Shown: positions 7,611 to 40,189 of the stretch, piece after piece
How the letters are laid out: each line of letters opens with the position of its first letter
How positions within the stretch are numbered: position 1 is the stretch's first letter
Assembly: GCA_013265495.1 (NCBI GenBank)
Contig: MU057959.1
Span: 13,202-77,201, forward strand
Direction of reading: 5' to 3'
Length of the DNA stretch: 64,000 bases
Source: Vicugna vicugna
Taxonomy: Eukaryota
Notes under the pieces: model-generated
What the model was told of the DNA's origin: nothing
Database searches by the model: none
Seen by the model: the letters and a program-made list of their open reading frames with translations, nothing else
Program-made: the position numbers and the translations under genes

Positions 7611-10600
7611 CAAGTTTACTTGCCAGGCTGTGGAGGAAGTGACCGCCTCACAGTGACCGCACCCCCGTGGAGGGGTGCACCTGACCTCTTTGGCTTCGTC
7701 CATCCACCTGCCACATTTCTCTTCAGAAGAACAAGCGCTGATCTACTCTGTGTTACCTCTAAGTCCATTCTCCCTTCTAGCCCCCGAACCCTTATTGAAA
7801 TCACTCATCTGGATCTGATTTAAAACTGCCCACCTATGTCTCTGAAACACAAAAACACCATTCCCCACTCTCTGGAACACTGAAACATCATGCGTCTGCC
7901 AGAGCAAAGACTAAGTAACAGCAGACACCTCAGAGTTTCAAAGAAGACTGTGCATCTTGCCCAAGGCCACTTTAAGTACATGGCCTTTGGGTTCCACTGG
8001 GACAGTGTAAATCAGGCTTCATGCATCTCTGCAGGTTCTCAGTCCCCACCTCTGTGACCCCCATGGTTTTACAGAGGACGGTTTGCAGAGAATCTCACTG
8101 TGGGCTCTCTGTGCTTGGAAGGTGAAGGACGCAGTGAGAGTAAGGGCATCTCCTGGGCCCCCTGTTGTGATCACGGCGCTGCTGGTGCTGTGCTGGCCGT
8201 GGCTGCACGTTATGTCCCCAGAACAACCTGGGGATGGGGGTGGGGGCTGCAACCACTTGTTCCCAAAGACTGTAGGACAGGCCAACTGTTCCTTTCACTC
8301 CCTTCTTAAATTTTCCTGTCCACGTCCAGGTATAAAAGATTCCCCAAAATGGAGAAATTTAAAGGAAAAGTACTATAAGCCTTAATGATTGAGCCAAAAG
8401 TAAATAATAATTTGGGAATGAAAAAATACAAACATCATTTAGGAAACATGTTGATGTATAAACTTACTGATGAATATGTAGATATATCCTTAAGACATAT
8501 ATTTTACTTCTTTGTTTATTGAACAACCTCTGTGCTATTTCTTCTGTTACATCAGAATTGGGACCTCACATTGATAAATTTAAATTTTCATCAACTATAT
8601 ATCCCTTAGACCATTTAGTTTAGGAATGTTGTTTAGGGCCATTAGAATGAACTTAGGTGCATTTTGGCCAGGAAATGCATTGCTTTGAACACAATCCATG
8701 TTTATGAAGCAATAAGCTTGGTGTTTGAAATCACTGTTTTGGGGGGGATTTAAGGTCCTTGGCTGTGTAGGAGTGGATTGAAGTGTTCTAAGATTGTTGT
8801 CAAAAAGTGTATCCTGCAGAATGACATTGATGTGTAAACTCAAGATAGTCCCTTGAGATGGTAGTTCTTAAGGTTGTTTTAAACAATCTAGGAAGAGATT
8901 CATGCACCTGAGAAACACCTGAAATAATAGTTCTATGTACATGTGGTTAGTCTGTCCTTGACCACACTCAAGATCGGGAGGGGCCATCCAGGTCATGAGA
9001 TTTAAGCCTTTGTTCATGACAAAGTAAAGTGCCCAGAAAATCTAGGGTCTATAGCCTGGTCATACCTCTCATCATGGTAGTCCTAGAATTTTAAAATATG
9101 GGCTCCCTGAAGGAGCTTGAGGCCAAGATTTCAACCCCAATATACCTTTACTCCTAAAACCATTATATTTGCAATCTATGACATAAACACCATCTGTTTG
9201 CTTTCTCCCTGGGGTGATTTCTATTTTCCGTTGTCCATTGTACCTTATATGGAAAACGTATTCAAGTGGGTTTATTAAAAATAATGAATAATTTGATATT
9301 TAATTAGGATTTTCTTTGTTTGACCCTCCCAAGTCCCTAGGTCTTCTATCACCTTAGAGCCTGTAAACAAGGTGACATTCAGAAGAGAAGAAGTAAGTCC
9401 TCTAAAATCAAGTAACTGTCCAGTGGCAAGGATGCATGTTTACACGTAAAATCTGAGTGGAAATTTGAAAGATAAACTACAAATTCACAGATCATGTTTA
9501 AAGCCTAATAAACATTAAGAAATCTAGAATTTGGGAAAGAAAAGAAAAGTAACGAGGGTTTTCATCAAACTCATGCCTGTCAAGATACGCCTTGTTTGTT
9601 TCACAACCCTGGCCATGATTTCTTAGAGAATACAATAACAGAGCAGTAAAAAAGACAAAAATGTGTTTAAGTGCATCCAAACACAAGCTCTTCTATGAAA
9701 ACACTGTAAGAGAATGAAAAATTGGAAGACACAAACACATATGTGTGTCAAAAATTGTGGCCACATTAAAAGTCAGTTAAGCATAGGGCAGAAAAAATTA
9801 TGGAAGTGGTAAAAAGAGGGATAATGTGATGTTCTTAAAATGTCTGACAGCTGACAGGTACGTCTGTTGGGATAGGATACATACATGTGTGTGGGTATAA
9901 TGTGATTATAAGTAGGCTATCAAATATATATAATATACAGTTAATTATATGTATTTGTATATCTTGAAACCGGTATCTCCAACTATAAAGCTCTTAGTTG
10001 TCTTCCTAGTATTTTTATTCCTCAAAACATCTGAGTTTTCAGACTCTTAGAAAACCTGCGGGGTGGAGAACATTCCATGAGCAACAGTGGAATTGTGGTG
10101 ACATGCATATGTTTAGTAATGATTGTAAATCACAGAGGATCAGCCTTTCAGGGTAGAGACACCTCTTTGTCACCCACAGCCCCACATGGTCTGGCGCCCA
10201 GTGGGAACCACATCCTCTAAATTCTGCATGAAGGAGTCCAGCCCCTAGGACTGTGGGGATGGAGACCAGGAGCCTCTTGTTCCTGGAGCCTTGTCCCCTT
10301 TTTCCTCTAACGAGTTGACTCCAGGGGAGGCTCTGTTACTCTCCCTCTAAGCAGAGGCTGCAGAGTCTCATGTTGAGTCTGATCCTGCACCCGACTCAGC
10401 TACTCCAGAGACCCTTCCAATGCACACAGCCCAGGGAGTCACATCATTGCAGCTAATCCAGGAATTTTACAGCAGATGTGGAGACCAGACCTTCTCTCAG
10501 GGTTGGGGATTTATGTGAGTTTCACTTCTGTGTTATTTTTACTTACCTATTGAACATAGTTAAGGTGATTATTTCATTTTCATTGTCGAACTCAATCTTA

Positions 10601-11115
10601 CAGATAAAGAGGTGGCATGGACAGGCCTCACTGATCCTCTAGGTGTTACTGGCTGCAGGATAAGTGGGTTTCCATTCTTAAATCTGAAAGCAAAATTCCC
10701 CTTAGAAACTGTGGTCACGTCTTTTCATGGTGTCCATCACCGTCCATCACAACTTTCTTTCCCTTCACTTCTGCACATCAGCACAAATTACCTACCTGGT
10801 ATGAACAAAGCAACGTTCATAAACTAATATGAAAACCCAAGGCAAAGGGGAAATACGGAGTTGACATTGTTCACAGATAGCTTACACCTTGTGAAATGGA
10901 ATAGCTCCAGTGGGACTGGTCTTTGGCTGACCCCTGTTCTCTTGTACAAGAACAGAAAAGATGTGGGACAGCCCAGTAATAGATTGTGCAGAGAGCACAG
11001 AGAGAACATAGCAGAAGTGCAGCCACCAGTTCGTGGAGAACTTCTGAGCTGGAGGTAGGTGGCCAAGTGAGGTACTTGGAAATACGGATACAAATAGCCA
11101 CAGCCCAAAAGGAGG

Positions 11116-11122
11116 CGCGCGC

Positions 11123-11165
<43 letters not shown>
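11116..11165. repeat. (CG)n(CA)n microsatellite in intron 1 of copy A
   Basis: gcgcgcgcacacgcacacaca...; shorter equivalents in B (~21014-21050), C (~37538-37549) and D. Confidence 0.9.
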
Positions 11166-11169
<4 letters not shown>

Positions 11170-11349
11170 TACACGCGGAGAAGACTTCCTCCCATATGAG
11201 CTCATCCCTTGTACCTCTGATTGAGCCTCCTCAGTGTCAAGTTGTCAAAACTCAGCAACAGAATCTTCATTGTGTTTGTTCTTCTAGTTGTCCTGTTGGC
11301 GAAGCTGACCGTGCACCAGTTGGCAGAGAGAATCTGAATGTGTGCTCCT

Positions 11350-11356
11350 TTTTATA
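11350..11356 (-). promoter_or_regulatory. TATA box of copy A
   Basis: TATAAAA on the minus strand about 80 nt upstream of the ATG, at the same position in all four copies. Confidence 0.75.
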
Positions 11357-13561
11357 GGATCCCTCTATGTCCTGACCCATAATGAACCAATGAATATTAA
11401 TTTGAGACCTGGTTACATAGACATTTTGTTAGGATACCCTGCTTGGCAGTCACGAGCCTTTCTGTCCACCTGTTGTTTTTATTTGTGATTAGTTTTAAGA
11501 GAAGCTTAAGTTGATCTGGACACTTGACCTTTAGGGTAAGTGAGAAATCATAGTGCAGTTGAGATGTTTCAAGAACAGTGATGTTTGTTTTCTTTTATAT
11601 CCTGAGTTGCAGAATGGGATAAATCCAAGACACTTGTCTGCCAATAGAATGTTATTTCTATCATTGAGGAGATATGTTTAAACGTATCTTGTCAAACTAA
11701 AGCTGTTACTGTTTGGTGTAACAAGATTACAGTGATTTCCTTAAGAGACCTTAGGAAAGTCTCCAATCCCTGAGGACAAACATGTATCTCCTCCCCAGAC
11801 GGTGATCTGTCATCCTTCTCACTAAGAGGACCTTCCCTGCAGACAACCAAGAACCTGTTGTGAGGAAGGCACTTCAGCAGTTCATTTTCATTGCTCTATT
11901 TTCCAAACACTTGTTACAATCTTGTCTGTAATATGTTATTTATTCATTGACTCAGTTGTTTCTCCAGGCAAGCAAGAATGCATAATAGGTCCTGAAATTT
12001 TTACCCGTTTGAAAGGAAAGAGCAAATTTTTTATCTTTGTACCTCTGGTTATTTTCAAGGACCCTGGAACAGCCAAGGAACCTTTTCTATGTCATTTCTT
12101 CCTCAAATTTTTATTCACGTTCATTCTTTCCTAGTGATTTATGAGATAAATTCCCTAATGTATATTTCATTCTGAATATAGAAATGGTGCTCGGATGATG
12201 TCCCACTCAATCTGAGTAGGGACACCCAGAGTCCTGACTCAGTCCTGGATGTTCCTGCTACACACGCAGCCTCAGCATCTCTGTGATGTCTACCTTTGAG
12301 GAGATTGTGGCTGAAAGTGGTCTCCAACTTCCATCTTATGTCTGATATTTGTCTTCATACTCACAAGAACCAACTACATTCATTCACTGTTGCGATTTCT
12401 CTTTTGTTTTAGTCCCGCTATCATCTTGTCTGTTTGTTTCACAGATTCCTCTGTATATTGTCCTATCCAATCTTGGACTGTGAAGTCTAGGGGAGGTGAA
12501 GCTTTCATGTCTCAGAATGTCTTGGAATTTGTTCTCTTACCTCCCTGATCGGGACAGTTCTGAGCAGGGTCTTGATCCCAACTAACACCCCTCATCCACC
12601 TGTCTCACTCCCTCCAACTCTGCGTGTTTCACTCCAACATTAGCAGGTTTTGCTTTTGGAGTGATACCGACAGATGTTCTCTTGAGACGTACACCGTGAT
12701 CATCCCAACTTTGGAAGAGCTTTGTTAGTGCCAATCAATGGGAAATTAAACAGCAGTTATCTTAAGAGATTATTGCAGCAACTTGGTCTTTGGATCCTGT
12801 TAATCCTGTTATTTTTATACCTGTTAGTATTCACGTAATCTTTAATATTTATTGCCTTGAACTCGTGTCAGTCACAGTGTGCCTTAACAGTATGACAAAT
12901 AATAAAGGAACCATCCTACACAAACATGAATCTGTTAACCCCTAAATATTGCTAAGTCATCCTATGTAGATGTCCCTGGTCTGTCTTCTCAAATTTGTCC
13001 AGCTTTCTGGAACTTTGTACCCCACCTCTCAGTTTATCAACTAACTTATGTCTTCTTTTTCGGTTTTCTCTGTGATCAGTGTGCATCTTAAATTCCATAA
13101 TTCCTCTCTAAATACTGCAAGGAAGCTTTTGAGTCTTGCCACCAGACACACCTGCTTCTCTCAAGGATTCCTGACCATACTTCTAATGAACTTAGTATTG
13201 AATTGAGGTAATTCACCACATCCCCAATTGTTGAGGTTTGATCCTGTGAAATTCTCTCCTGAAATGTCTCTCAAATGAGGACAGGGTCAGAAATCCCCAG
13301 ATTTATTGATGATGCTGGTCCTGATGGAGGGTGTTCAGTGCTGTGCATGGATGCCCACTTTTCTACCCAGTGCCCCGGGAAAGGTCATTGCTCCTGGTCT
13401 CCAGATACACATCTGAGTTGAAAGCTTTCAGGCCCTCTTCCAAAAGCTTGCCCTATGTCAGGATTGTTTCAAGGCACTGGTGCCCTTGGTAGATGTCTTC
13501 TCCTAATCAACAGCTGTGGTTTGACCAGATCCGGGAAGGCTTTCCAAAGCTGTTTGAATGG

Positions 13562-16411: not shown

Positions 16412-17224
16412 ATAGGCAGTTTACTATGTTGTGTCAATTTCCTGTGCACACAACAATCCTTCAGACATACATGAACATTCACACGTTCATTTTCACACTC
16501 TTTTTCACCATAGGTTAACTAAAAGATTTTTAACGTAATTCCCAGTGCTATACAGTATGAACATACTTCTTTATTTTATATAAGTTACTGCAAATCTTGA
16601 ACTCCCAATTTATCCTTTATTTCCTTCCGAACCCCTGATCAACATAAGTCTGATGCTGTTCTTGTCACTTTGTTTTGTAAAGTTGTTCTTTTGTCATTTT
16701 TTAGACTAGATTCCACATATAAGTGATATCATATGGTATTTTTCTGGTTTATCTTTTTTTTTTTGTATTAGCTTGGTTTCTTTCTGACTCTTAATGCTTT
16801 TCATTTAAAGTTGCCTTGTTTTTCCAATATTTTAACCCCTTACTCTCTCTTTTTCCTTTAAACTGGTATTCATGTAGGCTCAAACACATCCTAAAAATGA
16901 AGAAATGAAGAAAAATGAAGAAAAAAATGATGAAGAAAAAGTGAAAAAAATTTGATTTCCTTCCTTCCCTGTCTACCTGTTATGAAATTAGATGTCATTT
17001 CTTTTTTTAAAAGCATATCTTCCTGTTTTTTCTCTTGCAAGTGATTGTAGTTATCATTTTTCCACTTGGGGTTTTCTCATTTCTATAGCTTCCTGCTCGT
17101 TTTCTTTTTCGAGGAGACCTTTCAGTATTTCTTTTAGCATAGGTTTAGTCATGCTGAGCTCTTTCAGTTTTTGCTTCTCTGAAATTCTCTCTCCTTCCAT
17201 TCTAAAGGATTGTCTTCCCAGGTT
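16412..17224 (-). mobile_element. ORF2-deleted L1, further truncated by a deletion, between copies A and B
   Basis: The L1 3' UTR is joined at ~16742 to inter-ORF/ORF1 sequence. It is collinear with 44005-44814 and ends where 3'-flank sequence homologous to 48238 resumes. Confidence 0.85.
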
Positions 17225-19533
17225 GGTAACAATTACCAGCCCTTCTGCTCAACTTCAGACATGCTGTGATTTGGGAGAAGGCACATCCCCTCGGTTATAG
17301 AGCATGGCATTTCTTACTTTGCCTGCATAAGTCTCAGGGAGTCCCACACATGTTTCCCCAGAATGAATAGGATGATGTGTGGGGACTTTTTCTTGAGCAC
17401 AGTGCCCCATCCCACTTCAATAAAGTGCCCATAATCCTCTCCCCTTTCCCATGATGGTGAAGTTCTTTTTTCTCCCTCATTGGGACACCTCGTGGACATC
17501 TCTATTTGACCTTCATCACACTTTTCTCTGGTGGGGCGTCTGTCCTATTAAAGGAATATGTTCCTGGATGTTTAGTGTGGGTATTTGTGAGTTTTAAATT
17601 AGGTGACTTTCTGAACAGATACACGTGCACAGAGTACCTATTAAATTAATTTATTTAAACCCTCAGAAATCAAATATCACGAAAGTGGACTTGAACAGTG
17701 AGCAGGAGAGAAGAAATGGGAAATAAGTATGTTTATGGAGAGAGAAAGATGATGTTATGCGGAAACCAGGGATGTTGTCTCCATGTTGTTGATCCTGATT
17801 CCATGCAGATGATGACTTGCCTGGTTCTCCGTCACGTGTTCTGTTGGTGAATAAAATAGGACAGGATTTAGTTGAGTTGACTGTATGACAGGTGACAGGG
17901 CTCACCTTCAGGGAGAAGTGTGTCCAAGGGCACAGGAGCTGCTAGTGTATCCAGTAGGCAGATTCCACGTGGAACTTTATACCCCCCATGTGTCTGATAT
18001 GTGAGTATCCATTTGCAATTCCCACAAGACTGTACATATTGTCGGACCTCTCCTGTGTAGGATTGATTCTAGTTTTGTGATTTCAGGATGCATCCTCGTG
18101 GAATGTTTCATCTAAAAATGATTGACAGGATCTATGACTGAGTTACACTTTTCCAATATTAAAAGTTTTGCCTTTGGTGGCTAGAGAATTACATTGTTTT
18201 ATAAGCTACTATTACTGCTTGCCTTTTTCCTCTCTTTGCTCCTAACAGAAAAAAAAAAATGACAGTTTAGCCTCATTCAATGTCCTTTTTCCTGGGCTAT
18301 CTTGTTCTAGAAACCATAAAAGTCCCTCTTTCCCATAATCACCATCTACAGGGGAATATAAGCCAAATGCATGTTTTTTACTTATTTTTGTTTTTTAATC
18401 AACCCCTGTGCTATTTCTTATGTTACAGCAGGGTTGGGACCTCATACTGATATATTTAAACTTTCATCAACTACGTACCCCTTCAACCATTTAAACTTAG
18501 CAATGCTGTTTAGGAGTCTTTGAGCAAACTCAGACATTTACATCTTTGCCACCAATCTAATTGCTTTGAACACGAACTGCGTTTATGAAGCAATAAGCTT
18601 GGTGTTTGATATCAGTATTTTGGGGAGATTTACGATCCTTGACTGTATAGGAGTGGATTAAGATGTTCTAGATTTGTTTTCAAAAAGCATATTCTGCAGA
18701 ATGACTTTTATGTGTCAACTCAAGACAGACCCTTAAGACATTATTCCTAAGGTGTTTTGTGCTTTTTTTTTTGGAAAGACTCTAGAGTTTCATTCACTTC
18801 AGAACCTTCTGAAATAATGGTTCTATGTCAGGTGTCTAGCTTGTCATTCAATACACTGAAGATCGGGAGGGGCCATCCCATTCATGTGATTTAAGTCTTT
18901 GTTCATGACAGAATCAAGTGCCTGGAAAACTTAGGGTCTATTGCCTGGTCGTAGCTCTCTGTGTTAGCACTAGAATTTTAAAATATGCAGTTATTGAAAG
19001 AATTTCAGGCCAAGATTTCGACCGTTATAAACTTTTACCCATAAAACTGTCATACTTAGAATCTATGGTACAAACACCATCTACTTGCTTTGTTCCCTGG
19101 ACACATTTTATTTTACCTTCTTTATTGCACCTTAAAAAGAAAGCATAATCAAATTGGCTGATTAAAACTAATGAACAACTTGACATTTAATTACAATTTT
19201 CCTTTTTCACCCCCCCTAGTATCAATGTCACCTATCACCTTACTGCCTGTCAACAAGGTGACATTCAGAAGAGAAGAATTAAGTCCCCTAATATCAGGTA
19301 ACTGTCAAGTGACAAAGATGCCTGGTTACACATAAAATTGGAGCAGAACTTCCAAAGATAAACTATGAATACAAAACAGATCATTTTTAAAGCCTAGTAA
19401 ACATGAAGAAATCTAGAATTGGGGAAAGAAAAGAAAAGTTACAAGGGTTTTCTTAAAATTCATAACTGTCTAGACAAACCTTAGTTGCTTCACAAGCCTG
19501 GGCAAGATTTCTTAGAGAATATAATAACAGAGA

Positions 19534-19534
<1 letters not shown>

Positions 19535-19575
<41 letters not shown>
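19535..19575. repeat. (AAT)n microsatellite in intron 2 of copy B
   Basis: About 13 perfect TAA units, absent from the paralogous position in A, C and D. Confidence 0.95.
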
Positions 19576-19576
<1 letters not shown>

Positions 19577-20458
19577 CAAAATGTATTTGTGTGTCTAAAC
19601 ACAAGCTCTTCTATCAAAACACCATAAGTGATTTAAACATTGGAAGATGGAGATATGTAAGTGTGTCAGAGTGTGGCCACATGAAAAGTCAGTCATATAT
19701 AAGGCACAAAAATTTATGGAAATGGTAAATAGGAAGATAATACGTTCTTAAAATTTCTGACAGCTCACAGGTACATTTACTGGGATAGAATATATACGTG
19801 TGTGGGGGTGTAATTTGATTATATGTAGACTATTAAATATATATAATGTTGTTATATATATTTGTATATCTTTAAAACAATCTCTTCAAATATAAGACCC
19901 TTAGTTGCCTTCTTAATGCTTTTATTCTTCAAAATATCTATCTGTGTGTGCGTGCTCCTAGTAAAACCCCTGCCACGAGGAGAACAACCCATCAGCAACA
20001 CTGGGAGCTGTGGTGACCTTAATACATTTAGTTGTTATTGTAAGTTGCTGAGAATCAGCCCGTCAGGGTAAAGGCCACTTTGTTATCCAAGTTCCCACAT
20101 CTTCTGGGCCCCAGGGGAACCACTATATCCTGCAGGTTGCACATGGACTCAAGGCCCTGAGACTGAGGGTGTACCGGCCAGGACCCTCCTGTTCCTGCTG
20201 CTTTGGCTCTTCTTTCCTTTAGTGAGTTGACTCCAGTGGGATGTCTGTGACTTTCCCTCTAAGTCAGGGCTCCAGGACATCCTGTAGACTCTCATACTGA
20301 ACCTGACTCAGAAACTCCACAGACCCTTCTAATCCTCAAAAGCCCAGGATTCGCAGTCTTCCACCTAAACCATGTATTTCACAGCAAATACAGAAGCCAG
20401 ACCTTTTCTCAGGGTTGGGGATTTACGTGAGTTTACCCTCTGTGTTATGTTTACTTAC

Positions 20459-21165
20459 CTGTCACAAATTGTGAAGGTGATTGTGTCAGCTTCATCATTC
20501 ATTTGAAAATGAGAGATGATAATCTGGCATGGACTGGGCTCATGGGCCTTCTCTGTGTTACTCGCAGCGATATAAATGCGTTTCCATTCTGAAACGTTAA
20601 AGCAAAATTTACCTTAGAAACTGTGATTCATGTCTTGTCATTGTGTCCAGCACCATCATGCGTTTCCCTTCACTTCTGCACATCAGCACACATTACCTAT
20701 GTTGTAGGAACAAACCAGGCTTCATAAAACAATGCGAAAGCCGAAGACAACAGGAAAAAACTGAATTGGGATTTTTCCAAAATCTCTTACCCTCTGTGAA
20801 ATAGAAGATCCCCAGTGGGATTGGTCTCTGGCTGACCTCCCTTTTTTACAAGGACAGTAAAGATGCGGGACAGCCCAGTGATAGATGGTGGGGAGAATCC
20901 TGAGACAGTGTAGATGTGCACCTGCCAGTTAGATGAGCAGTTCTGAGGTGGAGGTAGGTGGCCAGGTGAGGTGCGTGAAATGCAGATACACACACCCACA
21001 GCCCCAAAAGACCACACATACACGCACGTGCGCGCACACACACACACGCACAGAGATAAGACCTCCCAGATGAGCCCGTCCCTGGTACCTGTGATGGAAC
21101 ATCCACAGCTGGAGGTCTTTGGGCAGCACAAAGCACACCAAGAGAGTCAGAAACAGAATCTGCAT
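20459..21165 (-). pseudogene. OBP-like lipocalin pseudogene, copy B (exon1 21089-21165, exon2 20459-20595; exons 3-6 deleted)
   Basis: Exon1 MQILFLTL.. is 77 nt, a 4-nt deletion and frameshift. Exon2 reads VSEWKRIYIAASNTEKAHEPSPCQIIISHFQMNDEADTITFTICDR, recognisably similar to the OBP W..YIAASN.EK segment, but its acceptor is tttaac instead of tttcag. Intron 2 is fused to the 3' flank at ~18373. Confidence 0.85.
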
Positions 21166-21247
21166 GCTGTCGGTTCTTCTAGTCCTCCTCCTGGGGAGCT
21201 AAGTGTGCCATGTGGCAGTTCGTGAAGAGAACCTGTGCGTGTGCCCC

Positions 21248-21254
21248 TTTTATA
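21248..21254 (-). promoter_or_regulatory. TATA box of copy B
   Basis: TATAAAA at the conserved position upstream of the ATG at 21165. Confidence 0.75.
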
Positions 21255-23429
21255 GTATCCATCTGTGTCCTGACCCATAATAAACCAAAGTGTGTTAAAC
21301 TGAGACCCTGGTTACATAGACATCCTTTTAGAATATCCTGGTTGGCAGGAAAGAGCTTTTCCATCAGTCCTTTTTATTTGAGAGTAGTTTTAAGAGAAGC
21401 TTAAATTGATCTGGACACTTGACCTTTAGGTTAAGTGAGAAATCACAGTGCAGTTGAGATGTTTCAAGGACAGTGATAGTAATTTTCTTTTATATCCTGA
21501 GTTCCAGAACGGGGTAAGTCCATGACAGCTGTCCCCAAACTGGGTGTTGTTTCTTTAACACTCAGTAGATATGTTTAAACTTATCTTCTCAAACTAAACC
21601 TGATATTGTTTGGTATAACGAGATTATAGTGGTTTCCTTAAAAGACATTAGGAAAGCCTTCAGTCGCTGACTGGTGACAGAGATCTTCACAAACAGGGAT
21701 CTCTGCCGTGTCCCCAGACTGGGCTTTGTCATCCTTCTCACTAAGGTGACTGTCCATACAGATGCCCAGGAACCTCTTGCGAGGAAGTCACATGAGCAGT
21801 TCATTTTCGTTGCTCTGTTTTCTAAACACCTTTGTTACAATCTTCTCTTCAACAAATCACTTATCTATTGACTCAGTTGCTTCTTAAGGCAAGCAAGGAA
21901 GCTTCGTAGTAGTTCCTGGTTTCAAAGCAAAAAGGAAACTTCCTACTTTCAAGGACACTGAAACAAAGAACCTCTTCTTTGACTTTTCTTCCTCAAGTTT
22001 TTATTCATGTTCCTTTTCTTTCCTAGTGACTTATTAGATAGATTCCCTATTGTGAGTTTTATATTGCCTGTAGCAATGTTACTCAAAAGACGTCCCACCT
22101 AATCTGAGACTTGGAGTCCTGACTTAGTCCCAGTTGCTCCCACGACACACACAGCCTCAGTGTCCGTGTCTTTGCTGTCTGACCTTTGAGGAGAACCTGG
22201 TTGAAAGTGGTCTTCAGCCTCCCTCTTCTGTCTGACATTTGTGTTCCCACTCACAAGGACCAACTACATTGATTCACGGTTGTCTTTGTTGTTTTGCTGC
22301 CAATATCATGTTTTCTCTTTGTTTCACAGACTCCTCTGTATATTGTCCTATCCAGCCTTTGACTGTGAGGTCTCTGCGAGGGAAGGCTTTCGTGTCTCAA
22401 AATGTCTTACAATTTCTTCTCTCACCTCCCTGATTCAGACAATTCTGAGCAGGGTCATGATCCCAGCTAACACCCCTCATTCACTTTTCTCACTCCCTCC
22501 AAGCCTGCCTTTTCCACCCAATATTAGTAACTTTTTCTTTTGGAGACCTACCATCATGTATTTCCTGGGAATTTGTAACAAGGTCATCCTGTCTTACGAA
22601 GAGCTTTCTAACAACTGATCACAGGGAAATTAAACAGCAGTTTGTCTAAGAGATTATTGCAGCAGTTTGGTCTTTGAATCCTGTCCTTTTATTTTAGACG
22701 TGATATAGTTACATGACCTTTAATGCATAAAGCCTTGAATTCATGTCAGTCACAATGTGCCTTACCAGTATCACAAATGAAAAAGGAACCAACACAAACA
22801 TTAAGGTTTTAATCCACAAATACTGCTAAGCCATCCTCTGTAGATGTTCCTGGTCTTTCCTTTTCAAGTGTGTCCATCTTTCTGGAACTCTGTACTCCAT
22901 CTCTCCCAGTTTATGAGGTAACTTCCTTATTGTTTGTCTGTCTTCTCTGTGACCATTGTTTTCAAAACTTAGATTCGCAGTTCCTCTCTAAATAGTGCAT
23001 GGAAGCTTTTCAGCCTGGCCACCAGACACACCTGGTTCCCTCACAGATTCCTAACCAAGGTTCCAGTGTACTTAGAATTGGAGCTGAGATAGTTCAACAC
23101 AAGCCTCCTTTCAGAGATCAGATCCCGGTGAAACTCTGTCCCCCGGTGTCTCTCAAATGGAGACAGGCTCAGTGATCCCGTGTTTTATTGATGATGCTGC
23201 TTCTGATGGAGGGTGTTCAGTGCTGTGTCTGGACCCCTGTCTTTCCAACCAGCAACGTGAGAGACATTGTTGCTCCTGGTCCCACACCACACTTACCAGC
23301 AGAACGCTGTGTGGCCATCTTCCTGAAACTTGTTCTGTTTTAAGGGTCCCCAAGAGCAATTTTTCCCTCAGCAGACCCCTCTGTTCCTAAACAGGATTCG
23401 TGTAAGTCTTTCTAAAGCTGTTTGAAGGT

Positions 23430-29612: not shown

Positions 29613-32110
29613 TCTCTACATCCATCTCTCCAAAGTACCCAAATCTATCTGGGGGATTAAGGATGATATACTTCACTGTGAAATCATGGTTATGTGTCTG
29701 TAGAAGTGTTTGAGTTTAGGTATTTCTTCTTTGAACGTTTGATAGTTTTCACTAGTGAAATCTTCTGGACCTGAAACTTGTTTATGCACAACTCTATGAT
29801 GACAGGTTGCATTTCTTTATTAGATAAAAAGAGTAAGTTTCACCTTGATTCAGCTTTTTTTTTAACATCTCTTTCAGGAAACGTGTTCATTTCATCAAAA
29901 ATATTACCCATAGAATATATTTCACAATTTTTCCACTTGTTTATGCCAGGTCTTGCCTGTCAACCCTCACTGAGGTTCTCATGTCAGATTCAACCCAATC
30001 CTTTCTACTCAGTTGTCTGTCCACGTATCTGTCCCCCTCACTACAATGCAGCATTTCCTTGCACACTCTGTAGATCATCGTCAGGAGTCCACATGCACAC
30101 CTCTTTTAGAGGAGAATTGAAACATGGCAGTCACGTATCCATTACTTGCCTCAAAAACCATAGTAACCTTCCTTACTGGTGCCTTTGACTTTGGGCAACT
30201 GGAGCTCAATTGCAGATCATCTTTGTGTAGTAACTGCAACATGGATTCTGTTAAGTAGCAGTGAGGTTTAGTTTCACTTCCCCAAGCCTTGGGCAGATCT
30301 CTGACCTTTGGCCCCAGATCTAGAGTGCAGGATCTCTTAGATCATGAACACCTTGAGGACCATGGGAAGCTCCTCTGTGTGCTCTGCCCAGTCCTTGAAA
30401 ATCCCCATGTTTCCTTCCCTTGGAAGCTGAGAGGAAGGAATCCCATCTTGAGGTCCTCTCTTCTGTGTCTACATTTAGAACTTCCCACCTGAGCTCTCGG
30501 TCAGCTTCTCGCTCCAAACACCACGCTGCCTTCGTGGTGGTGTGGAGGGACCACGTCTCAGCTGCTGCCTGTCTTTGATGAGTAGTGACGTATCAGTGAC
30601 AATTAGCAGTCTTCTGCTCAATTTCTGGCATGATGTGCTGTGGGACAAAGGACGTCCCCTCGGTTGTGCAGCATGACATCTCACACTTTCCCCATGTGAA
30701 TCTCAATGAATCCCACACACATTTAATTCTCCTGAATGAATAGGAAGTTCTGTGGGGCTGTTTCTGATCACAGTGCGCCATCCTACTGCAATAGAATATC
30801 CATAGTCCTCTTCCTTTTCAGTGATGGTATTGTCCTTTTCTAACTCACTGGGACACCTCATGGATGTCTCTATTTCACCCTGATCAGAGTTGTCTATAGT
30901 GGGACATCTGTCCAATTAAAGGCACATTTTCTTGGATGTTTAACACGGATGTTTGTGAGTTTTAAAGTAGGTGACTTTCTGCACAGGTATTTATGCACAG
31001 AGTACCTATTAAATCAATTTATTTAGACCCTCAGAAATCAAATATCACCAAAGAGGACATGAACACTGAGCAGGAGAGAAGAAATGGGAAAGGAAGTATG
31101 ATTATGTCTGAAGGGAGATGATGTTATGTGGGAATCAGGGATGTTGTCTCCACATTGTTGATCCTGATTACAAGACAAGATGATGTGCCTGGTTCTCTGT
31201 GACATGTTCTGTAGGTGAATAAAACAGGACAGGGGTTAGCTGAGTCGGTTATATGACAGGTGACAGGGTTCAGCCTCAGGGAGTCGAATGTCCAAGGATA
31301 GAGGGGCTGTTATTGAATCCACTGGGCTGATTCCACATGGAAGTTAATACTCCCCATGTCTCTGATATGTGGTATCCATTTGAAATTCCCCCAAGGACAT
31401 ACATATGGTGGGACCTCTGCTGTGTAGGATTTGTTCTAGGAGTTTTGTGATTTCAGGATGCATGCTTTGGAGTGGATCATCTACAAGTGATTGACAGGAT
31501 CTGTGATTGAATTATACTTCTGTTCTCTATTTTTAAGATTTGTGTTTAGTAGGTTGAAGAATTACATGCACTTGGAACCTTGTGGATTTTTTTTCTTTGC
31601 TTTAAAATAGCTCACTTTAAGAAAATCACCATCTGAAGGAGAATATAAACCAAATGCATGTTTCAGGCAGTGTGTTTGCAAGGTCCTCAGTGAGGCTGTG
31701 ACAGTTACGTACATTTAAACATTGTTTCTGCTGCAGTGGGGAGTTCTCGAGGTGGGATGTATGTGGACAAACATCAGGTCAGGACTGACTGGGAAATTAA
31801 GTAGTTTTCATCACCTTCTGACAATTCATGCTTCTCTTTAAGGTCCACCATTGGAGTAGTTGTTTCATGATGGTGTTTTGTAACCAAAACTGCTCAGCAT
31901 TAATCTACCAGTCATTATTCTATAACTTAACAAGTCTCCAGAGAAACAAATTAACCCGAATGTAAGAGAAAAAAATTCCCTAGTGATATAATTTAAAGGA
32001 TTGCTGCGAAATTCATTGTCATTTACAACATTTGGCCCATTAAAAGTCCCAGTGTGCCCTTACTAACTTACTTCCTTGAGCAGCAGTAACGACTGGTCAT
32101 TTTTACTTAC

Positions 32111-32156
32111 AGGTAGATGGTGTTGAAGTCCTGTGGCGTTCAACAGTTTCCGCAGT
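32111..32156 (-). CDS. Copy C exon 6 (stop at 32140-32142, then 3' UTR)
   Basis: ttttcccccag|AC TGC GGA AAC TGT TGA...CCT|gtaagt; 46 nt. Confidence 0.75.
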
Positions 32157-35100
32157 CTGGGGGAAAATTAGAGGGGCAGGAATAAAAGAATGGCCGAGTT
32201 CTCCCATTTGCCATTGTTTCCAGGGTTTCCTTTTTTAAATAGTGGATTTTATAAATGATTCTTTATGGAGTAAGTAATCTCAAATCAATCATTTTAGCCC
32301 CCCAGTAGACCATTTCCATCCCACATACACACAGGAAAAAGTGTACTTTCATTACCCTGACAGGGTAATGCCACAGTATTTTCTAGTGCAAGCCCATACG
32401 TCTCCAGCACCTCCTGGAACTGTTTCAAGAACGTCCATAAGCATTCCAGTGTAATACAAGCTTCATTGCCTGAAAATGACAATGCACGAAGCAGAATTTC
32501 ATCCGTTAGAACACCTGATAATTTCTGAACAGAGAATAAGAAATTGTGCAAATCAGATCTTAACTTGGTACATTTTAATAGCGTCTCAAACAGACACCCA
32601 CATCTGCTACCTGTCTTTAGCACGAATCCCAGTCTCACTGTGTGACTACTTTCTCTCCAGCATCAGCACCGAACTCCAAAGACTCATCAGGATCTCTATG
32701 AATCTGCTGCCTGATTCATACCTAATATGGAAACTGTCTTCTTCACATTCAAGCCTCATTCTGTACCAAATATTCTAGAAACATGTACATACCTCCCAGA
32801 GACAGTCAACGCTTACACATAGTCATGGGAGATGACTTATTCTTTAATTAAGCTACAGTTCTCTCCAGTGCCTGTTTGAAATAGACACGTGGTGTCCCAG
32901 GGACTACAGCACACGTCTCAGTGCTCCTATGTGGTCACGAGTGGTGATGTCTGCATTCATCAGAATGTGGCATGAGGGAAACTGAACATGATTAAGATTT
33001 ATTTTGAAAACTTCATTTCCAGGGCTTAGAATGCATTGGGAAATGGCATTATGTGAAGAAATGGAGTTCAACCATATCATAGGCATTGGTTGAAGTTACT
33101 TGACCTGTACAGAAACTATTTCTAAAACAACTCACTTTCTAAAGATTCTTCAATTTTAACACATGGGACTCCCTTAGAAATGTCAGATGATCTGTTACTT
33201 CCCACTGCTCCCCACTCCTCTTTTTACCTTTAACTTTTTCAGATCACATCCCAGCATCCTTAATGAACACAGCAACCTAGGCCTTGTGAATGGGTAGTGA
33301 GTCATATGTGCAGCTGGTGACTTTCTGAAGGAAAATGCTGACATTGGAAGTGTTACCAGACAGTGACTATGAGGATAGTAGGCTGTGGTACATACCAGAG
33401 AATGCAGCCAGTATGACCTGGTTTCCTTCTTCATCCACAAAGACAAGAAATAGTACTGTGACACCATCACACAGTTGAATAATTCGAACTTCCTGTACAC
33501 CATCCTCTGTGAGTGACGACAGACATATATACTGCTGCGTCTTCATTGATCGCAGAGTAGCTTCATTCACCTAATTAGCAGAATAGCCACAATCCTGCCT
33601 GTGTTGGTCCGTCTGTCACTCCATCACTGCAGTGATGCTACTCTTGGTTATGATGACAGGGAAAGCGGGGAAGACCTTCCTTATTGCTACCTTCTCATAC
33701 AGTTCTTCTGGTCAGCTTTGCAGCCCCACTAGTATGTTTTCTCAAACGTGTTCTAAGGAAGCCAACATGTTAATTTAGTTTTTTAACAACATGTGACTAT
33801 CACATGCGACTTCAAGATCTCTATATATTTCCAGTATCCCAGTAATGGAGTTGATTTCTTTGTAACCAAAATCAAGTGACCACTCGTCATTTGGTGTTAT
33901 AAGTGCCTGCCATGTACTGGACACTTCTGGACACTGTGCATGAATGACTGCATCTCCTCTGCCCCGCAGTCTCGCTGTGTTACATCACAGATGTAGAGAC
34001 CACTGCCGTGTGTGTCCATGTTAGGACAGGTTTCCTCACCATGATGTGGAGGAAGTGACCATCGAATAGTGAGCTCCCACCTGCTATGGGGGCACATCCC
34101 CTCTCTAGCTCCGTCCGTCCATCTGCCACGTTTCTCTTTAGAAGAACAAGCTCTTCTTGTTCTTCTGTGTTACCTGTAAATCCTTACTCCCTTCTAGCCC
34201 TCCTGACAACCTTTTGGAATCACTCATCTGGATCTGATTTAAACCTGCCCAGCTGTGTTCCCAAAACACAAGAATGCCATTACCCACTGTCTGGAACACT
34301 GAAGCATCATGTGTCTGCCACAGCAAAGACTAAGTAACAGCCAGCACAACTTTAGAGTTTCAGACAGATATGTGCTGTTGCCCAAGTCCACTCCTAGTCC
34401 ATGGGCCTTAGGTTCCCCTGGGACAGTTTAAATCGGGTTTCATCATCTCTTCAGGTTCTCAGTCACCACCTCTGTGATCCCCATGGTTTTACAGAGGAGG
34501 GTTTGCAGGCAATCTCACCGTAGGCTGTAGGTGAGTTGAAAGAGAAGGAGGCAGTGAGAGTAAGTGCATCTCCTGGGCCCCCTGCTGTGGTGAAGGTGCT
34601 GCTGCTGCTGCTCTGCTGGCGGTGGCTGCACGTTCTGTTCCCAGAACAACGCTGGGGGAGCTTCATTTGTTAGTTTTCAAGAGAGTGTAGAACAGGCCAG
34701 CTGTTCCTTTCTGTCCCTTCTTAACTTGTCCCGTCAATATCCAGGCAGAAAGGATTCCCCCAAATGGAGAAATTTAAAGGATAAGTAGTTAAAGCATGGA
34801 TGATTCAGCCAAAAGTAAATAATATTGTAGCAATAAAATAGCAACAACATTTCTTAGGAAATGTCCTGATACAAGGAGTTATTGAGGAATACGTAGGGAA
34901 GCCCTTCAGCATACATTTTACTTATTTGTGTTCATTGCACAACCCCTTTGCTATTTCTTATTTATACCAGGAATGTGGCGTCACCGTGACATAGTTAAAT
35001 TTTCATCACTTACGTATCCCTTAGAACTGCTAAGTCTAGGAATGTTTTTAAGGCCATTAGAAAGAACTTAGACATTTAAATCTTAACCACCAGCACCCTT

Positions 35101-37676
35101 GCTTTGAACACAAATTGTGTTTATGAAGCAATAAGCTTTTTCTTTGAAATCACTATCTTTGTTTTGGAGTTAAGGTCGTTGGCTATATAGGAATGGATTA
35201 TCATGTTCTGAGATTGTCTTCAAAAAGCGTATTTTGCAGAATGAATTTGATGTCTAACATCAAGAAAGACCCTTGAGACATTAGTTCCTAGGGTGGTTTT
35301 AAAGAATCTAGAAATAGTTTCCTGCACCTGAGAACCTCCTGAAATAACAGTTCTGTGTCCATGTGGTTAGTCTGTCACTGACTACACTCATGATCGGGAG
35401 GGTCCATCCAAGTCATGTGAGTTAAGTCTCTGTTTATCACAAAATAAAGTGCCTGGAAAATATAGGGCCTAGTCTGTGGTCGTACCTCTCGTCTGCAGTC
35501 AAAATAGAATTTTAAATTATGGAGTTCTTAAAGGAATTTATGGCCAAGATTCCAAACCTAATATACTTTTTACCCAGGAAACAGTCAGACTTACCATCTA
35601 TGATATAAACACCCTCTGCTTCTGTTACTCCTTTGATAATTTTTTCAATGTATTGTCCATTGCACCTTAAAAGGAAAACGTATTCAAGTTGGTTGATTAA
35701 AGATAATTTACAATTTGACATTTAATTAGGATTTTCTTAATTTGACCCTCCCATGACCCTGTGTGACCTGTCAGCTTAGTGACTGTTAACAAGGTGACAT
35801 TCAAATGAGAAGAAATAAGTCCTTTAAGATCAAATAACTGTCAAGTGGTAAGGATGTTTGTTATACATAAAATCTGAGCAGAATTTCAAAAGATAAAATA
35901 CAAATACAAAAGAGATCCTATTTAAAGAATAATAAACATGGCAAAATCTAGAATTTGGGAAAGAAAAAAAGTAACAAGGCTTTTCTTGAAACTAATAACT
36001 ATAAATACACACCTATTCATTTCACAACCCTCGCCATGACTTCTTAGAGAATATGAATTCAAAGAATAACCAAAAAAAGATAAAAATATATATTAAGTGT
36101 ATCCAAAACAAGTTCTTTTACCAAAACCCCTTAAGAGAATTAAGCATTTAACAACTCATATATGTATGTGTGTGAAAAAGTGCGAATACGTGAGAAGTCA
36201 GTTAAATATAGACTATTAAAAGGCATGGTAATGATAAACAGAAAATAATAAGGTGTTTCCTCAAATGTCTGACAGCTGACAGGCACGTCTACTGGGATAG
36301 GATATATACGTGTGTGGGGGTGTAATGTAGTTGTAAGTAGTCTATCAAATATATGTAATGTACAACCAGTTAGATAAATTCGTGTGTCTTTAAACCAGTG
36401 TCTCCAAACATACAGCTGTTAGTTGTCGTCTTATGCTTTTATTCCTAAAAATATCTATCTGTGTTGCATGCTCCTAGTAAATCCTCGGCCATGTGGAGAA
36501 CATTACATGAGTAGCACTGGGAGATGCGGTGACTTTAATGCATTTACTGATTATAAATTGCTGAGACTCAGCCCTTCAGGGTAGAAGCCAGTTTGTGATC
36601 CACTTCCCCACATCCTCTGGAGCCCAGTGGGAACCACATGCCTTAAATTCTGCATGAAGTAATGCAGCTTCCAGGACTGTGGGGATGGAGGCCGGGACTC
36701 TTGTTTCTACAGCATTGGCCCCATTGTCCTTTTTTAGTTGACTCCAGTGAAATGTCTGTGACTTCCCCTCTAAGCAGAGGCTCCAGGTTGTGTTTTGAGG
36801 CTGATCTTGGACCTGACTCAGCCACTCCAGAGACCCTTCTACCACAGAACCCTGGGAGTCCCAGTCTTCCACCTCATTCAGGTATTTCAGAGCAAATGTG
36901 GAAGCCAGGCCTTTTCTCAGGGTCGCAGAGTCACGTGAGTTTGCCTTTTGTGGTATTTGTACTTACCTGTCATAAATTGTGATGGTCACTGTGGTCTCTG
37001 TATCATCAAATTGAATCTTAGTGATACAGAACTGGCATGGGCAGGTGTCACTGGATTTTGCTGTGTTAGTGATTGTGAGACAAATGAGTTTCCACTCTGA
37101 GATCTGAAAGCAAAATTCCCTTTAGAAACTGTGGTCCATCTCTTGTCAGTGTATCTACCAACACCCATGACACTTCCCCTTCACTCATGCACATCAGCAC
37201 AAATTACCTACCTTGTATGAACAAAGCAGGGTTCATAAATAATGTGAAAACCCAAGGCAAATGTAAAACATGGAGTTGAGATTATGCAGGGATTGCTTTC
37301 CCCCTGTGAAATGGAAGAGCCCCAGTGGGACAGGTCTCTGGCTGACCCCCCTTCTCTTGTACAAGGGCAGTAAAGATGTGGCAGAAGCTCAGTGATATAT
37401 GGCACTTGGAATATGGAGAGTGTAGCAGAAGTGCAGGTACCAGTTAGTGCAACAGTTCTGAGTTGGAGGTAGGTGGCCAGGTGAGGTGCATGGAAACATC
37501 GATACGCATACCCACAGCCCAAAAGGAGCTCCCATACTCACACACACACTTACAGATTGCGGTTCTTCTGTAGCAGATGAGGCTGCCTCTGCTACATCTG
37601 ATTGAGCCTCCTCAGTTGGAAGTTCTTGGGCGGCACAAAGCACAGCAAGTGCAAGAGTCAGGAACAGAATCCTCAT
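32140..37676 (-). CDS. Divergent cysteine-rich OBP/Bos d 2-like secreted lipocalin, copy C (6 coding exons; potentially intact, otherwise a young pseudogene)
   Basis: Exons 37596(or 37554)-37676, 36967-37103, 33701-33752, 33396-33504(33506), 32356-32469 and 32140-32156, all with GT/AG boundaries. Joined: MRILFLTLALAVLCAAQELPTEEAQSD[VAEAASSATEEPQS]ISEWKLICLTITNTAKSSDTCPCQFCITKIQFDDTETTVTITIYDRTRLRKHTSGAAKLTRRTDGVQEVRIIQLCDGVTVLFLVFVDEEGNQVILAAFSGNEACITLECLWTFLKQFQEVLETYGLALENTVALPCQDCGNC*. The signal peptide, VDEEG turn and F.EV....G...EN helix resemble porcine OBP. Frame continuity requires the +2 acceptor of exon 4. Confidence 0.65.
32356..32469 (-). CDS. Copy C exon 5
   Basis: cattttcag|GC AAT GAA...CAG G|gtaatg; 114 nt, open; encodes the lipocalin C-terminal helix region. 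Confidence 0.85.
33396..33506 (-). CDS. Copy C exon 4
   Basis: cactcacag|AG|GAT GGT...TCT G|gtatgt; encodes DGVQEVRIIQLCDGVTVLFLVFVDEEGNQVILAAFS. Confidence 0.85.
33701..33752 (-). CDS. Copy C exon 3 (52 nt)
   Basis: ggcttccttag|AACACG...GAACT|gtatga; homologous to the 56-nt exon at 51435-51490. Confidence 0.6.
36967..37103 (-). CDS. Copy C exon 2
   Basis: ttgctttcag|ATC TCA GAG TGG...GAC AG|gtaagt; 137 nt, open, phase 0 to 2. Confidence 0.85.
37554..37676 (-). CDS. Copy C exon 1 (signal peptide; donor at 37596 or 37554)
   Basis: MRILFLTLALAVLCAAQE... Two in-frame phase-0 donors: GAT|gtagca and TCT|gtaagt. Confidence 0.8.
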
Positions 37677-37759
37677 CCTGGCGGTTCTTCTAGTCCTCCT
37701 CCTGGAGAAGCTGAGAGTGCTGTGCACCAGCTGGTGGAGAGAATCTCAATGTGTGCCCC

Positions 37760-37766
37760 TTTTATA
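37760..37766 (-). promoter_or_regulatory. TATA box of copy C
   Basis: TATAAAA 84-90 nt upstream of the ATG, with a CCAAT pentamer on the opposite strand about 30 nt further upstream. Confidence 0.75.
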
Positions 37767-39977
37767 GTGGCCGTCTGTGTCCTGACCCATAATGAACCAA
37801 TGGCTGTTAATCTAAGAATTCGGATACCTAGACATCCTCTTAGGATATCCTGGTTGGCAGGGAGGAGCTTTTCTGGACATCCATTATTTTTGTTTGAGAT
37901 CAGTTTTAAGGGAAGCCTCAGTTGATCTGGACACTTGAACTTTGGGTTGAGTGAGAAGTCACAGTATAGTTGAGTTGTTTCAAGGATAGTGATATTTATT
38001 TTCTTTTATATCCTGAGTTCCAGAATGAGGTAAGTCGAATACACCTGTCCCAAAATCAGAAGTTATTTCTTTAACATTGAGGGGATATATTTAAACTTAT
38101 CTTTGCAAACTAAGGATGGTTCTGCTTGGTTGAGCAAGATTCCACTGATTACCTAAGAGACCTAAGGAAAGTCTCCAGCCCCTGAGGGGAGGAACAGATC
38201 AGCACAAACCTGTATCTCCCCGACCCTCCCCACACAGGGAACTGGCATCCTTCTCACTAAGAGGACCTCCCATGCAGATGCCCAACAACCTCTTGTGAAA
38301 AAGACACATGAGCAGTTCATTGTCTTAGGTCTGTTTTCCAAACATCTTTTTTACAATCTTACCTTTAACATCTTATTTATTCATTGATTCAGTTGCTTCT
38401 CCAGGCAAGCAAGAAAGGTTGACGTTAGTTCCTCTAATTTTTACAAGTTTGAAAGAAAAAGTGAAATTTCTTTATCTTTGTGCTCCTGGTTATTTTCAAA
38501 GACACTGAAGCAGCCAAAGCAGTTTTTGTTTGTCTTTTCTCCCTAAAATTGTATTCCTGTTCATTTCCTTTCTAGGTAATTGTAAGATGCATTCTATGAG
38601 ACATATTTTGTTGTGACTTTTGAAAAGGTACTCAGAGGATGTCCCACTGATCTTTGTGTCAACACCTAGCGTCCTGACTCAGTTTCAACTATTCCCCAGA
38701 TACACACAGCCTCAGCATCTCTGTATTTGAGTGTGGTTGTAAGCGGTCTTCAGCCTCTGTCTTCTGACACCTGTCTTCATACTCGCAAGGATGAACACTT
38801 CTTATTCACTGTTGTCTCTCCTTTTTCTCTCTTATTGTGGTCCTAATATAATATTTTATCTTTGTTTCACAGATTCCTCCGTATATTGACTATGCAGTCT
38901 TTGTGAAGTCTATGGAGGGGAAGGGTTTCATGTCTCAAAATGTCTTGGAATTTGTCCTGTTACTTCTGTGACTGAGATCATTCTGAGCAGTGTCATGATC
39001 CCAGCTATTACCGCCCCACCCAACTTTTTCATTCCCTCCAGTTCTTCCTCTTTCAGCCAACGTGAGAAGGTTTTTCTTTTATTAGAGTCCTGACAACATC
39101 TGTTCCCTGGGATTGTGCACTAATATTACGAAGAGCTTTCTAACTGCCATTGAAGGGGAAATTAAATAATAGTTACTCTAAGAGACTATTGCAGCAGGTT
39201 ACTTTTGGGATCCTGTAAATCCTGTTATTTTAGACCTGTTACAGTCACATGACCTTTAATACCTGTTCCCTTGAATCCATGTCAGTCACAATGTGCCTTG
39301 ACACTATGATAAATAAAAAAGGAACCAACACAAAGATTAAACTTTAAACCGCCATACGTTGCTAAGCCATCTTGTGTAGATGTGCCTGGTCTGTCCTTTT
39401 CAAAATTGTCCAGATTTGTTGTACCTGTACCCCACCTCTTCCAGTTTATCAGCCAACTTCTTTCTTGTTTGTCTGTTTTCTCTGTGATCACCTTTTAGAC
39501 ATCTTAGATTCCACAATTCATGTCTAAATAGTGCAGGGAAACTTTTGAACCTGGCCACCAGACACACCTGGTTCCCTCACAGATTTATGACTGTGGTTCT
39601 AATGTACTTAGGATCTGAGTTGAAATAATTGAACACAAGCCCACTTTCAGAGGTCTGATCCTGGTGAAATTCTGTTCCGCAGTGTATCTCAAATGGAGAC
39701 AGGCCCAGTGATCCCCAGTGTTTTATTGAGAATGCTGGTTCTGCTGATGGGTTTTCTTGTTGTCCCTGGACCCCCACCTTTCCAACCAGTGTCTCCAGAG
39801 ATGTCAGTGCTCCATGTCTCACAGCACACTTCTCAGCATAGGGCTGCGGGGCCATCTTTCCAAGGCGTTTTCTGTGCTGAGTCCCCCAGAGCAATTTTTC
39901 CCTTGTGAGATCACCGTGTTCCTTAATAGGAGCTCTGGTTTGACCAGATCTAAAGTTTTAGAAAGCTGTTTCAAGGA

Positions 39978-40189
39978 TATCAGTTCTCAAACAGGGGCCG
40001 GCATGCCTTCCAGGAGAGACATGAATGGTGACACGTTTGATCATCCCACTGGGAGAATGTGATGTTGACCCCTTCCACCTAGTGGGCTGAGGTCAAGCTA
40101 CTTTGTACACACCCTACAGTGTGCAGGATAGCCTCTCACACCCAGAGTCTTCCTGTCATGTGTCACTTGTGTGGAGGTGAGAAATGCTA
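39978..40189 (+). mobile_element. MER20-like element upstream of copy C
   Basis: Paralogous to 13562-13780. Confidence 0.7.

Follow-up and report, generated by a model that had tools for sequence, protein, structure and literature searches.

A cysteine-rich lipocalin gene in an odorant-binding protein cluster of the vicugna: a candidate for a rearranged disulfide network

To our knowledge, lipocalins of the odorant-binding protein (OBP) type usually contain 0, 2 or 4 cysteines; in the mature product of copy C, an OBP-type lipocalin gene on the minus strand of the 64,000-nucleotide window of Vicugna vicugna DNA analyzed here (assembly GCA_013265495.1, contig MU057959.1, positions 13,202 to 77,201 of the forward strand), we count 11. 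Is this the product of a functional gene in which the lipocalin scaffold has been rewired, or an accidental accumulation in a decaying duplicate? The answer that we favor, with moderate confidence, is that copy C is an intact gene for a secreted, very acidic lipocalin in which the classic disulfide has been replaced by a new, denser network.

The interval 32140..37676, which an earlier note made from the bare sequence had assigned to this gene, extends exactly from the stop codon (32142-32140) to the ATG (37676) of copy C, and all of its exons are free of stops, as had been stated there. The gene consists of six exons (123, 137, 71, 111, 114 and 46 nt, from exon 1 to exon 6), with AG/GT at all 10 splice sites and an uninterrupted reading frame of 190 amino acids. 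Exon 1 (coding, 37554..37676) encodes the signal peptide (approximately residues 1-16, including Cys14; the cleavage site is placed by analogy with OBP and is thus putative) and an acidic N-terminal arm. Exon 2 (36967..37103) encodes strands A-C, with Trp45 of a GxW-type motif and Cys49, 62, 64 and 67. In exon 3 (35595..35665), the first complete codon is that of Cys88 (35664-35662), followed by Tyr92 at the canonical strand-D cysteine site. Exon 4 (33396..33506) contributes barrel strands and Cys123; exon 5 (32356..32469), which is 12 nt longer than usual, encodes the hinge Cys152, Cys157 within an insertion, the helix, strand I and Cys184. Exon 6 (32111..32156) encodes Cys187, the canonical C-terminal lipocalin cysteine, and Cys190, and continues past the stop into the 3' untranslated region. 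An alternative exon 4 acceptor at 33570 was rejected: it results in an immediate stop, and the paralogues place the acceptor at 33506, so that the cysteine upstream of it is intronic. A TATA box (37761..37766, minus strand) lies about 90 nt 5' of the ATG, and its counterpart aligns in copies A, B and D of the same cluster. Exon 1 contains a second in-frame donor after 37596, which is the site of the paralogues; its use would remove 14 amino acids and leave the cysteine count unchanged. Within 37554-37596, this paralogue-type donor is weakened in copies C and I, and the later donor adds a 14-residue acidic and serine-rich stretch. No near-identical duplicate of copy C was found.

Altogether, copy C encodes 12 cysteines. 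One belongs to the signal peptide; the other 11 remain in the mature chain (positions 49, 62, 64, 67, 88, 123, 152, 157, 184, 187 and 190). The earlier note had correctly recognized the cysteine richness but arrived at 10, having overlooked Cys88. Because the number is odd, at least one cysteine must be free or bonded between chains. The mature protein has a mass of about 19 kDa and a pI of 4.05 (30 acidic vs 8 basic residues), and contains neither histidine nor an N-glycosylation site. The CxxCxxC motif, which has a role in Fe-S proteins, is indeed present immediately before the stop (Cys184, 187 and 190), as the note had observed. This tail is composed of the canonical C-terminal lipocalin cysteine (187, in the middle), a clade-wide cysteine and a cysteine shared with copies G, I and E, so that its likeness to a metal-binding motif may be incidental. 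Copy C aligns with pig OBP without gaps from Trp16 to the hinge, and as far as the hinge the pig numbering equals that of copy C minus 29. The positions at which pig OBP contacts docked ligands, and its Cys63-Cys155 bridge, are given in a table and a figure legend of PMC10046769; of the 13 such positions counted here (Ile21 to Leu118), most are hydrophobic in copy C and only one is a cysteine, Cys64. This residue replaces pig Phe35, and pig Tyr82 is replaced by Glu; mutants of these two gate residues of pig OBP fail to bind 1-AMA, according to a passage of PMC6172251.

Comparison with the paralogues indicates that several of these features extend beyond copy C. The contig carries 10 OBP-type lipocalin copies (A-J) in tandem within 190 kb, and another copy, K, resides on a different contig. 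The frames of four of the 10 (C, F, H and J) are open; the other six (A, B, D, E, G and I) are truncated, frameshifted or interrupted by stops. The identity of copy C to F, H and J is 32-41% (32% to J). In the tree of the eight full-length gene bodies (C, I, D, G, F, H, J and K; A, B and E were excluded as partial), (C,I) joins (D,G,F,H) with a bootstrap value of 100, to the exclusion of J and K. No member of this six-copy clade has Cys92, the equivalent of pig Cys63; Cys184, Cys187 and a hinge cysteine at 151 or 152 are common to all its members, and Cys187 is present in all eight full copies. Judging from these alignments, the loss of the strand-D cysteine together with the gain of the hinge and pre-terminal cysteines is a clade-level event, not a peculiarity of copy C. 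Of the mature cysteines of C, only Cys67, 123 and 157 have no counterpart in the other seven copies of the tree, Cys49 being found also in K, and the other copies have cysteines at nine positions where C has none. In the paralogues, cysteines have gathered around what corresponds to the mouth of the calyx (62, 64, 88, 111, 113 and 133), and Cys88 is accompanied by Cys64 in all four copies that have it (B, C, D and G). Of the intact paralogues, F has 7 mature cysteines and H has 6; the unusual richness that the note had attributed to copy C is therefore real but not unique to it. The same applies to exon 5, the 114 nt of which exceed the 100 nt of D, as had been pointed out, and the 102 nt of F, G, H and J, but recur in E and I. 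A CxxC-type exon 6 is likewise found in copies E and I; this spacing stems from an exon 6 start that is 3 nt shorter than that in F and H, which have CxxxC, and the tail of copy I is CxxCxxCxxC, with four cysteines at i+3 spacing. The dromedary orthologue of F (KAB1253562; 88% identity) retains all seven mature cysteines and differs by a 2-codon indel in exon 2.

To what extent has selection maintained copy C? The radiation of the cluster amounts to about 0.14 substitutions per site per copy. Over the branch leading to C, about 0.3% of 1500 simulated neutral copies kept the frame and the splice sites when no indels were allowed, and none of 1500 remained intact when indels were introduced near the measured rate (indel ratio 0.06-0.07). 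At codon positions 1 and 2, copy C differs from F, H, J and K by 0.37-0.43, compared to 0.21-0.25 in noncoding sequence (P < 1e-5 in all four comparisons), and its pairwise ratios of nonsynonymous to synonymous substitutions (dN/dS) are 1.2-1.8. This divergence above the intron rate suggests positive selection, with lineage-specific rates derived from pairwise distances only. With K as the outgroup, 65 residues are unique in C vs 18 in J, but 33 in C vs 24 in F, so that the acceleration is clade-wide.

A more recent comparison is provided by a relative, X15, whose RNA-library contigs are about 95% identical and cover the locus linearly; from this divergence, X15 is likely to be an Old World camel. 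In exon 5 and the coding part of exon 6, the relative shows three differences in 131 nt, all synonymous and two of them in cysteine codons, vs 23 differences in 421 nt of noncoding sequence; zero replacements were found where 5.0 are expected (P = 0.007, Poisson; 0.009, Fisher; 0.03 for all three being synonymous). With these synonymous changes and no replacements, the tail of copy C is conserved. The stop, the splice sites and five cysteines are kept in X15 and in all three DNA runs of closer kin. The open reading frame (ORF) P0039 reads the same exon 5 as copy C, and Cys123 is kept in exon 4 of ORF P0014. From the gap counts, exons 1, 2, 4, 5 and 6 of the relative cannot contain indels; one 1-nt gap falls within 35524-35659, where 65 of the 136 positions belong to exon 3, and most likely lies in the intronic run 35567-35571, where all seven paralogues are shorter as well. 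The vicugna genome carries a synonymous difference from all four runs compared at window position 32152, in the third position of the Cys187 codon. Broadly, then, the suggestion of neofunctionalization in the earlier note is supported by the excess of replacement over intron divergence against all four intact paralogues, the preserved frame and the conservation of the helix and tail exons in the relative.

A new disulfide network, one of the possibilities listed in that note, seems to be the best reading of these observations, albeit for the clade (C, D, F, G, H and I) and not for copy C specifically. Upon secretion, most of the cysteines would be oxidized, giving up to five bridges and one free or inter-chain cysteine. 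Strand parity in the lipocalin fold, which agrees with the pig OBP contacts, places Cys64 opposite Cys88 at the mouth, and locates Cys67 on the outer side of the barrel, where the bond to the C-terminal cysteine is normally made. On this parity and on their co-occurrence, Cys64 and Cys88 may tentatively be joined across the calyx mouth. The hinge Cys152 could pair with Cys184, the clade-wide hinge cysteine and Cys184 being natural partners. Cys187, deprived of its canonical partner, might have been re-partnered with an outer-face cysteine of strand B (67 in C; 69 or 85 in paralogues), and a bridge between Cys49 and Cys157 might anchor the longer helix to strand A. Given that the calyx is still hydrophobic and the gate residues have become Cys and Glu, the protein would be a stabilized carrier or signal whose range of ligands has changed, not a general odorant carrier.

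Several observations weigh against this reading. Six of the 10 contig copies are broken in the vicugna, including I, the closest paralogue of C. Positions 1 and 2 diverge at the intron rate between J and K (0.19 vs 0.19), so that fast evolution is a trait of the family, and gene conversion in introns could inflate the contrast between exons and introns. Exon 4 differs from P0014 in 5 of 36 residues, compared to 6 of 28 in the intron read-through, and hence shows no clear constraint. Cys64 occurs without Cys88 in three copies (A, F and H), and the cysteine positions shift between paralogues (62/64/66/67/69; 85/87/88; 111/113; 151/152), which is a poor fit to fixed pairs. The model computed for the F orthologue is of low confidence (pLDDT 52). 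The earlier note had named disabled orthologues with unconserved cysteines, or the lack of a spliced transcript or peptide in any tissue, as the findings that would speak against it. The orthologous cysteines are kept wherever they were compared (6 of the 11, those of exons 4-6), but neither a spliced transcript nor a peptide was detected. None of the four RNA runs compared, out of six listed, contains a lipocalin exon-exon joint; this absence is weak evidence, because exons make up about 10% of the 5.8-kb query and runs of a 5%-diverged species that hold only spliced sequence stay below the threshold of such a search. Among database proteins of 80-2000 amino acids, six candidates for exon 2 of C were obtained, none of which matches it. 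Further look-ups were negative as well: none of four window ORFs was found by exact look-up in the protein collection, and none of 547 pattern matches to the exon 3 ORF in metagenome contigs was confirmed.

An alternative is that the gene is silent or recently dead, its cysteines being a relic or partly the result of drift, and that the locus now mainly yields the antisense RNA described below. The missing spliced mRNA and annotation, the near-neutral evolution of exon 4 and the prevalence of pseudogenes among the neighboring copies all point in this direction, and a neutral ORF survives the short distance between the lineages 11-35% of the time. However, the absence of replacements in exons 5 and 6, where 5.0 are expected, and the lack of room for indels in five exons of the relative, with the single gap near exon 3 best placed in the intronic run, speak against decay, and the sampled tissues are probably the wrong ones; we consider a silent or dead gene quite unlikely.

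If the gene is functional, the cysteines could serve purposes other than an internal network. The odd cysteine number, the conservation of the three terminal cysteines and the loss of the canonical bridge, as in the bovine OBP dimer that forms by domain swapping (in the relevant passage of PMC4841250), would all be compatible with unpaired cysteines that form covalent dimers or oligomers of the protein or attach it to the mucins of a secretion. Copy C lacks the bovine hinge deletion, being in fact four residues longer at this site, and its strongly negative net charge does not favor self-association; among the alternative roles this one is the least unlikely, but unlikely nonetheless. Binding of zinc or copper by the CxxCxxC tail (CxxCxxCxxC in I) or by a ring of cysteines at the calyx mouth, or a redox switch, appears rather improbable: the tail is identical in all four runs compared, copy I adds a further repeat of the i+3 spacing, the protein is strongly acidic and the paralogues accumulate cysteines at the mouth positions (62, 64, 88, 111, 113 and 133), but the middle cysteine of the tail is the canonical disulfide cysteine present in all eight full copies, the spacing stems from the 3-nt shorter start of exon 6 (CxxxC in F and H), histidine is absent and cysteines of secreted proteins are usually oxidized. 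The least probable of these roles is the covalent capture of thiols or other sulfur volatiles by a free cysteine at the pocket entrance. Such capture would agree with the replacement of pig Phe35, a ligand-contact and gate residue, by Cys64, and with the production of H2S by camel poll glands reported in PMC11276878. It agrees poorly with the presence of a cysteine at only one of the 13 docking-contact positions, with the plausible partner that Cys64 has in Cys88 and with the absence of OBP from one poll-gland proteome table, in which an unannotated gene would, however, be invisible. Thus, the new disulfide network remains our preferred explanation of the cysteines of copy C.

A separate feature of the locus is a circular contig segment of 1.7 kb (32661..34367) that is abundant in the RNA runs of the relative and spans exon 4; its plus-strand orientation is derived from splice signals only. 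A head-to-tail joint that returns from 34364 to 32658, spanning 1707 nt and with a slide of 3, was detected in all four RNA runs, which come from three studies, with circle contig depths of 101, 52, 4.6 and 381. In run X18, the segment is a single 1736-nt contig that closes on itself, with almost no coverage of the flanks. A splice signal exists at the joint only in the plus-strand register, in the form of a polypyrimidine-AG acceptor at 32660 (probability by chance about 0.02). At the donor position, 34368, the vicugna genome has AT; the homologous base is G in six of eight paralogues, and GT is found in four. The joint does not appear as a loose end in any of three DNA runs of close kin (as opposed to the relative's own DNA), no inverted repeats were found within 12 kb of either end of the circle, and Rfam yields no match in window positions 30000-40000. 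A genomic tandem repeat as the source of the circular contig is disfavored; the ratio of inside to outside depth varies between runs, from about 3-fold to more than 100-fold. It is fairly likely that the circle is an antisense back-spliced RNA of the relative, perhaps lost in the vicugna lineage. A broader scenario would combine the two features: the camelid OBP lineage would have become a secreted thiol-chemistry family, in which the mouth cysteines and the CxxCxxC(xxC) tail act as a trap, gated by metal or redox state, that takes up sulfur volatiles or metal ions. In addition, the abundant antisense circular RNA that overlaps the gene in one camelid lineage could keep it silent outside the target gland. 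We regard this combination as speculative and unlikely.

Some further details of the cluster are worth recording. Copy F (G000:C1129:102907-108467 of the contig) is intact. Copy H (G000:C1129:141938-152798) has an exon 4 longer by 33 nt, as in the camel-like fused model P0004, and approximately 5 kb of extra sequence in intron 3. Copy I (G000:C1129:165155-170684), the sister of C, has a frameshifted exon 2 and a lost donor in the vicugna; in the Camelus models of its orthologue, including that of Camelus ferus, exon 2 is unbroken and has four cysteines, and one camel-like fused model contains two I-like copies. In copy J, the usual exon 1 donor is altered; the alpaca model XP_031527112, which matches it almost letter for letter, uses a later donor. 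Copy K (G000:C1089:1207000-1212644) is a canonical OBP; an isolated exon-1-like piece lies some 23 kb downstream of it. Within the window, copy A (1-11400) is interrupted in intron 3 by about 7 kb of A-rich, repeat-like sequence and has an exon 4 damaged near 30-145, and copy B (17200-21400) has no exons 4-6.

The birth and death of OBP copies in clusters is already known from passages of PMC8474896; the text of this cross-mammal survey and its four text supplements contain no camelid term. We found no literature on camelid OBPs, on mammalian OBPs this rich in cysteine or on the circle, in a search that mostly left subscription papers outside its reach. At this locus, a lineage dropped the signature disulfide of its family and repeatedly gained cysteines under apparent positive selection, so that it presents itself as a natural experiment in rewiring of the lipocalin scaffold and offers concrete candidates for camelid chemical signaling or allergens. 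Proteomic searches are likely to overlook copy C, given that the databases yielded no protein for it; the exon model makes its expression directly testable, and the antisense circle is a separate, independent lead.

How, then, does copy C relate to known systems? The circle resembles CDR1as and circSry, single-exon circular RNAs of a similar size class, in being an abundant circle made of a single segment, but differs from them in the lack of repeated seed sites (its top 7-mer occurs four times). With respect to the protein, five single exons of C searched alone gave no lipocalin match in Pfam (PF00061 family). Profiles made from six copies including C did: bovine OBP is the first match in PDB for exon 2 (E 1e-10), followed by pig OBP, and the bovine and pig proteins are the top matches for exon 4; among proteins, all six matches of the exon 2 profile are camelid or camelid-like models. 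Copy C shares with mammalian OBP-type lipocalins, the lineage of Can f 4, pig OBP and bovine OBP, the six coding exons, the conserved phases and the location in a tandem cluster. Exons 1-6 are coding in the dog obp genes, in the gene descriptions of PMC8474896, and the OBP clusters are X-linked in dog and mouse, in passages of PMC8474896 and PMC2824723, respectively. In the GxW motif of copy C, Trp45 is kept and Gly is replaced by Ser, as in the annotated camelid OBP, copy J. For the dromedary F orthologue, the Atlas model (predicted template modeling score, pTM, 0.70; template modeling score, TM, 0.64 to an OBP model) supports the fold only, and AlphaFold with nine sequences (predicted local distance difference test, pLDDT, 52) yields the strands, the helix and the last strand in lipocalin order.

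Pig OBP (PDB 1DZK/1A3Y) and its camelid counterpart J resemble copy C in the six exons, the phases, the hydrophobic calyx and the C-terminal cysteine (Cys155 = Cys187). Unlike the pig protein, copy C lacks the canonical bridge between strand D and the C-terminus, Tyr at position 92 in place of Cys63 making a 63-155 bridge impossible, and has 10 extra cysteines, a 4-residue insertion before the helix, and Cys and Glu in place of Phe35 and Tyr82. The missing bridge does not exclude descent from OBP because bovine OBP (PDB 1OBP/1GT1), the best PDB match of the exon 2 profile, has no canonical disulfide either; in the bovine protein, a hinge deletion causes domain swapping, whereas copy C has 11 cysteines and no such deletion. 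The CxxxC group of X-linked rodent OBPs, aphrodisin and probasin is, like copy C, an OBP lineage with extra cysteines in exon 2, but its CxxxC motif sits further along strand B. This group retains the canonical bridge and has four cysteines, whereas exon 2 of copy C has CxCxxC and Cys92 is absent; the additional CxxxC disulfide of the rodent proteins is encoded in exon 2, in a passage of PMC2824723. The closest database entries, dromedary KAB1253562 and Camelus ferus EPY74145, are models of paralogues F and I from the same cysteine-rich clade; they are automatic models with cysteine sets unlike that of C and are not its orthologues, and EPY74145 fuses exons of several copies. Judged by these comparisons, copy C is a selected, apparently undescribed variant of the OBP family that descends from this lineage but has neither its canonical disulfide nor the rodent motif.

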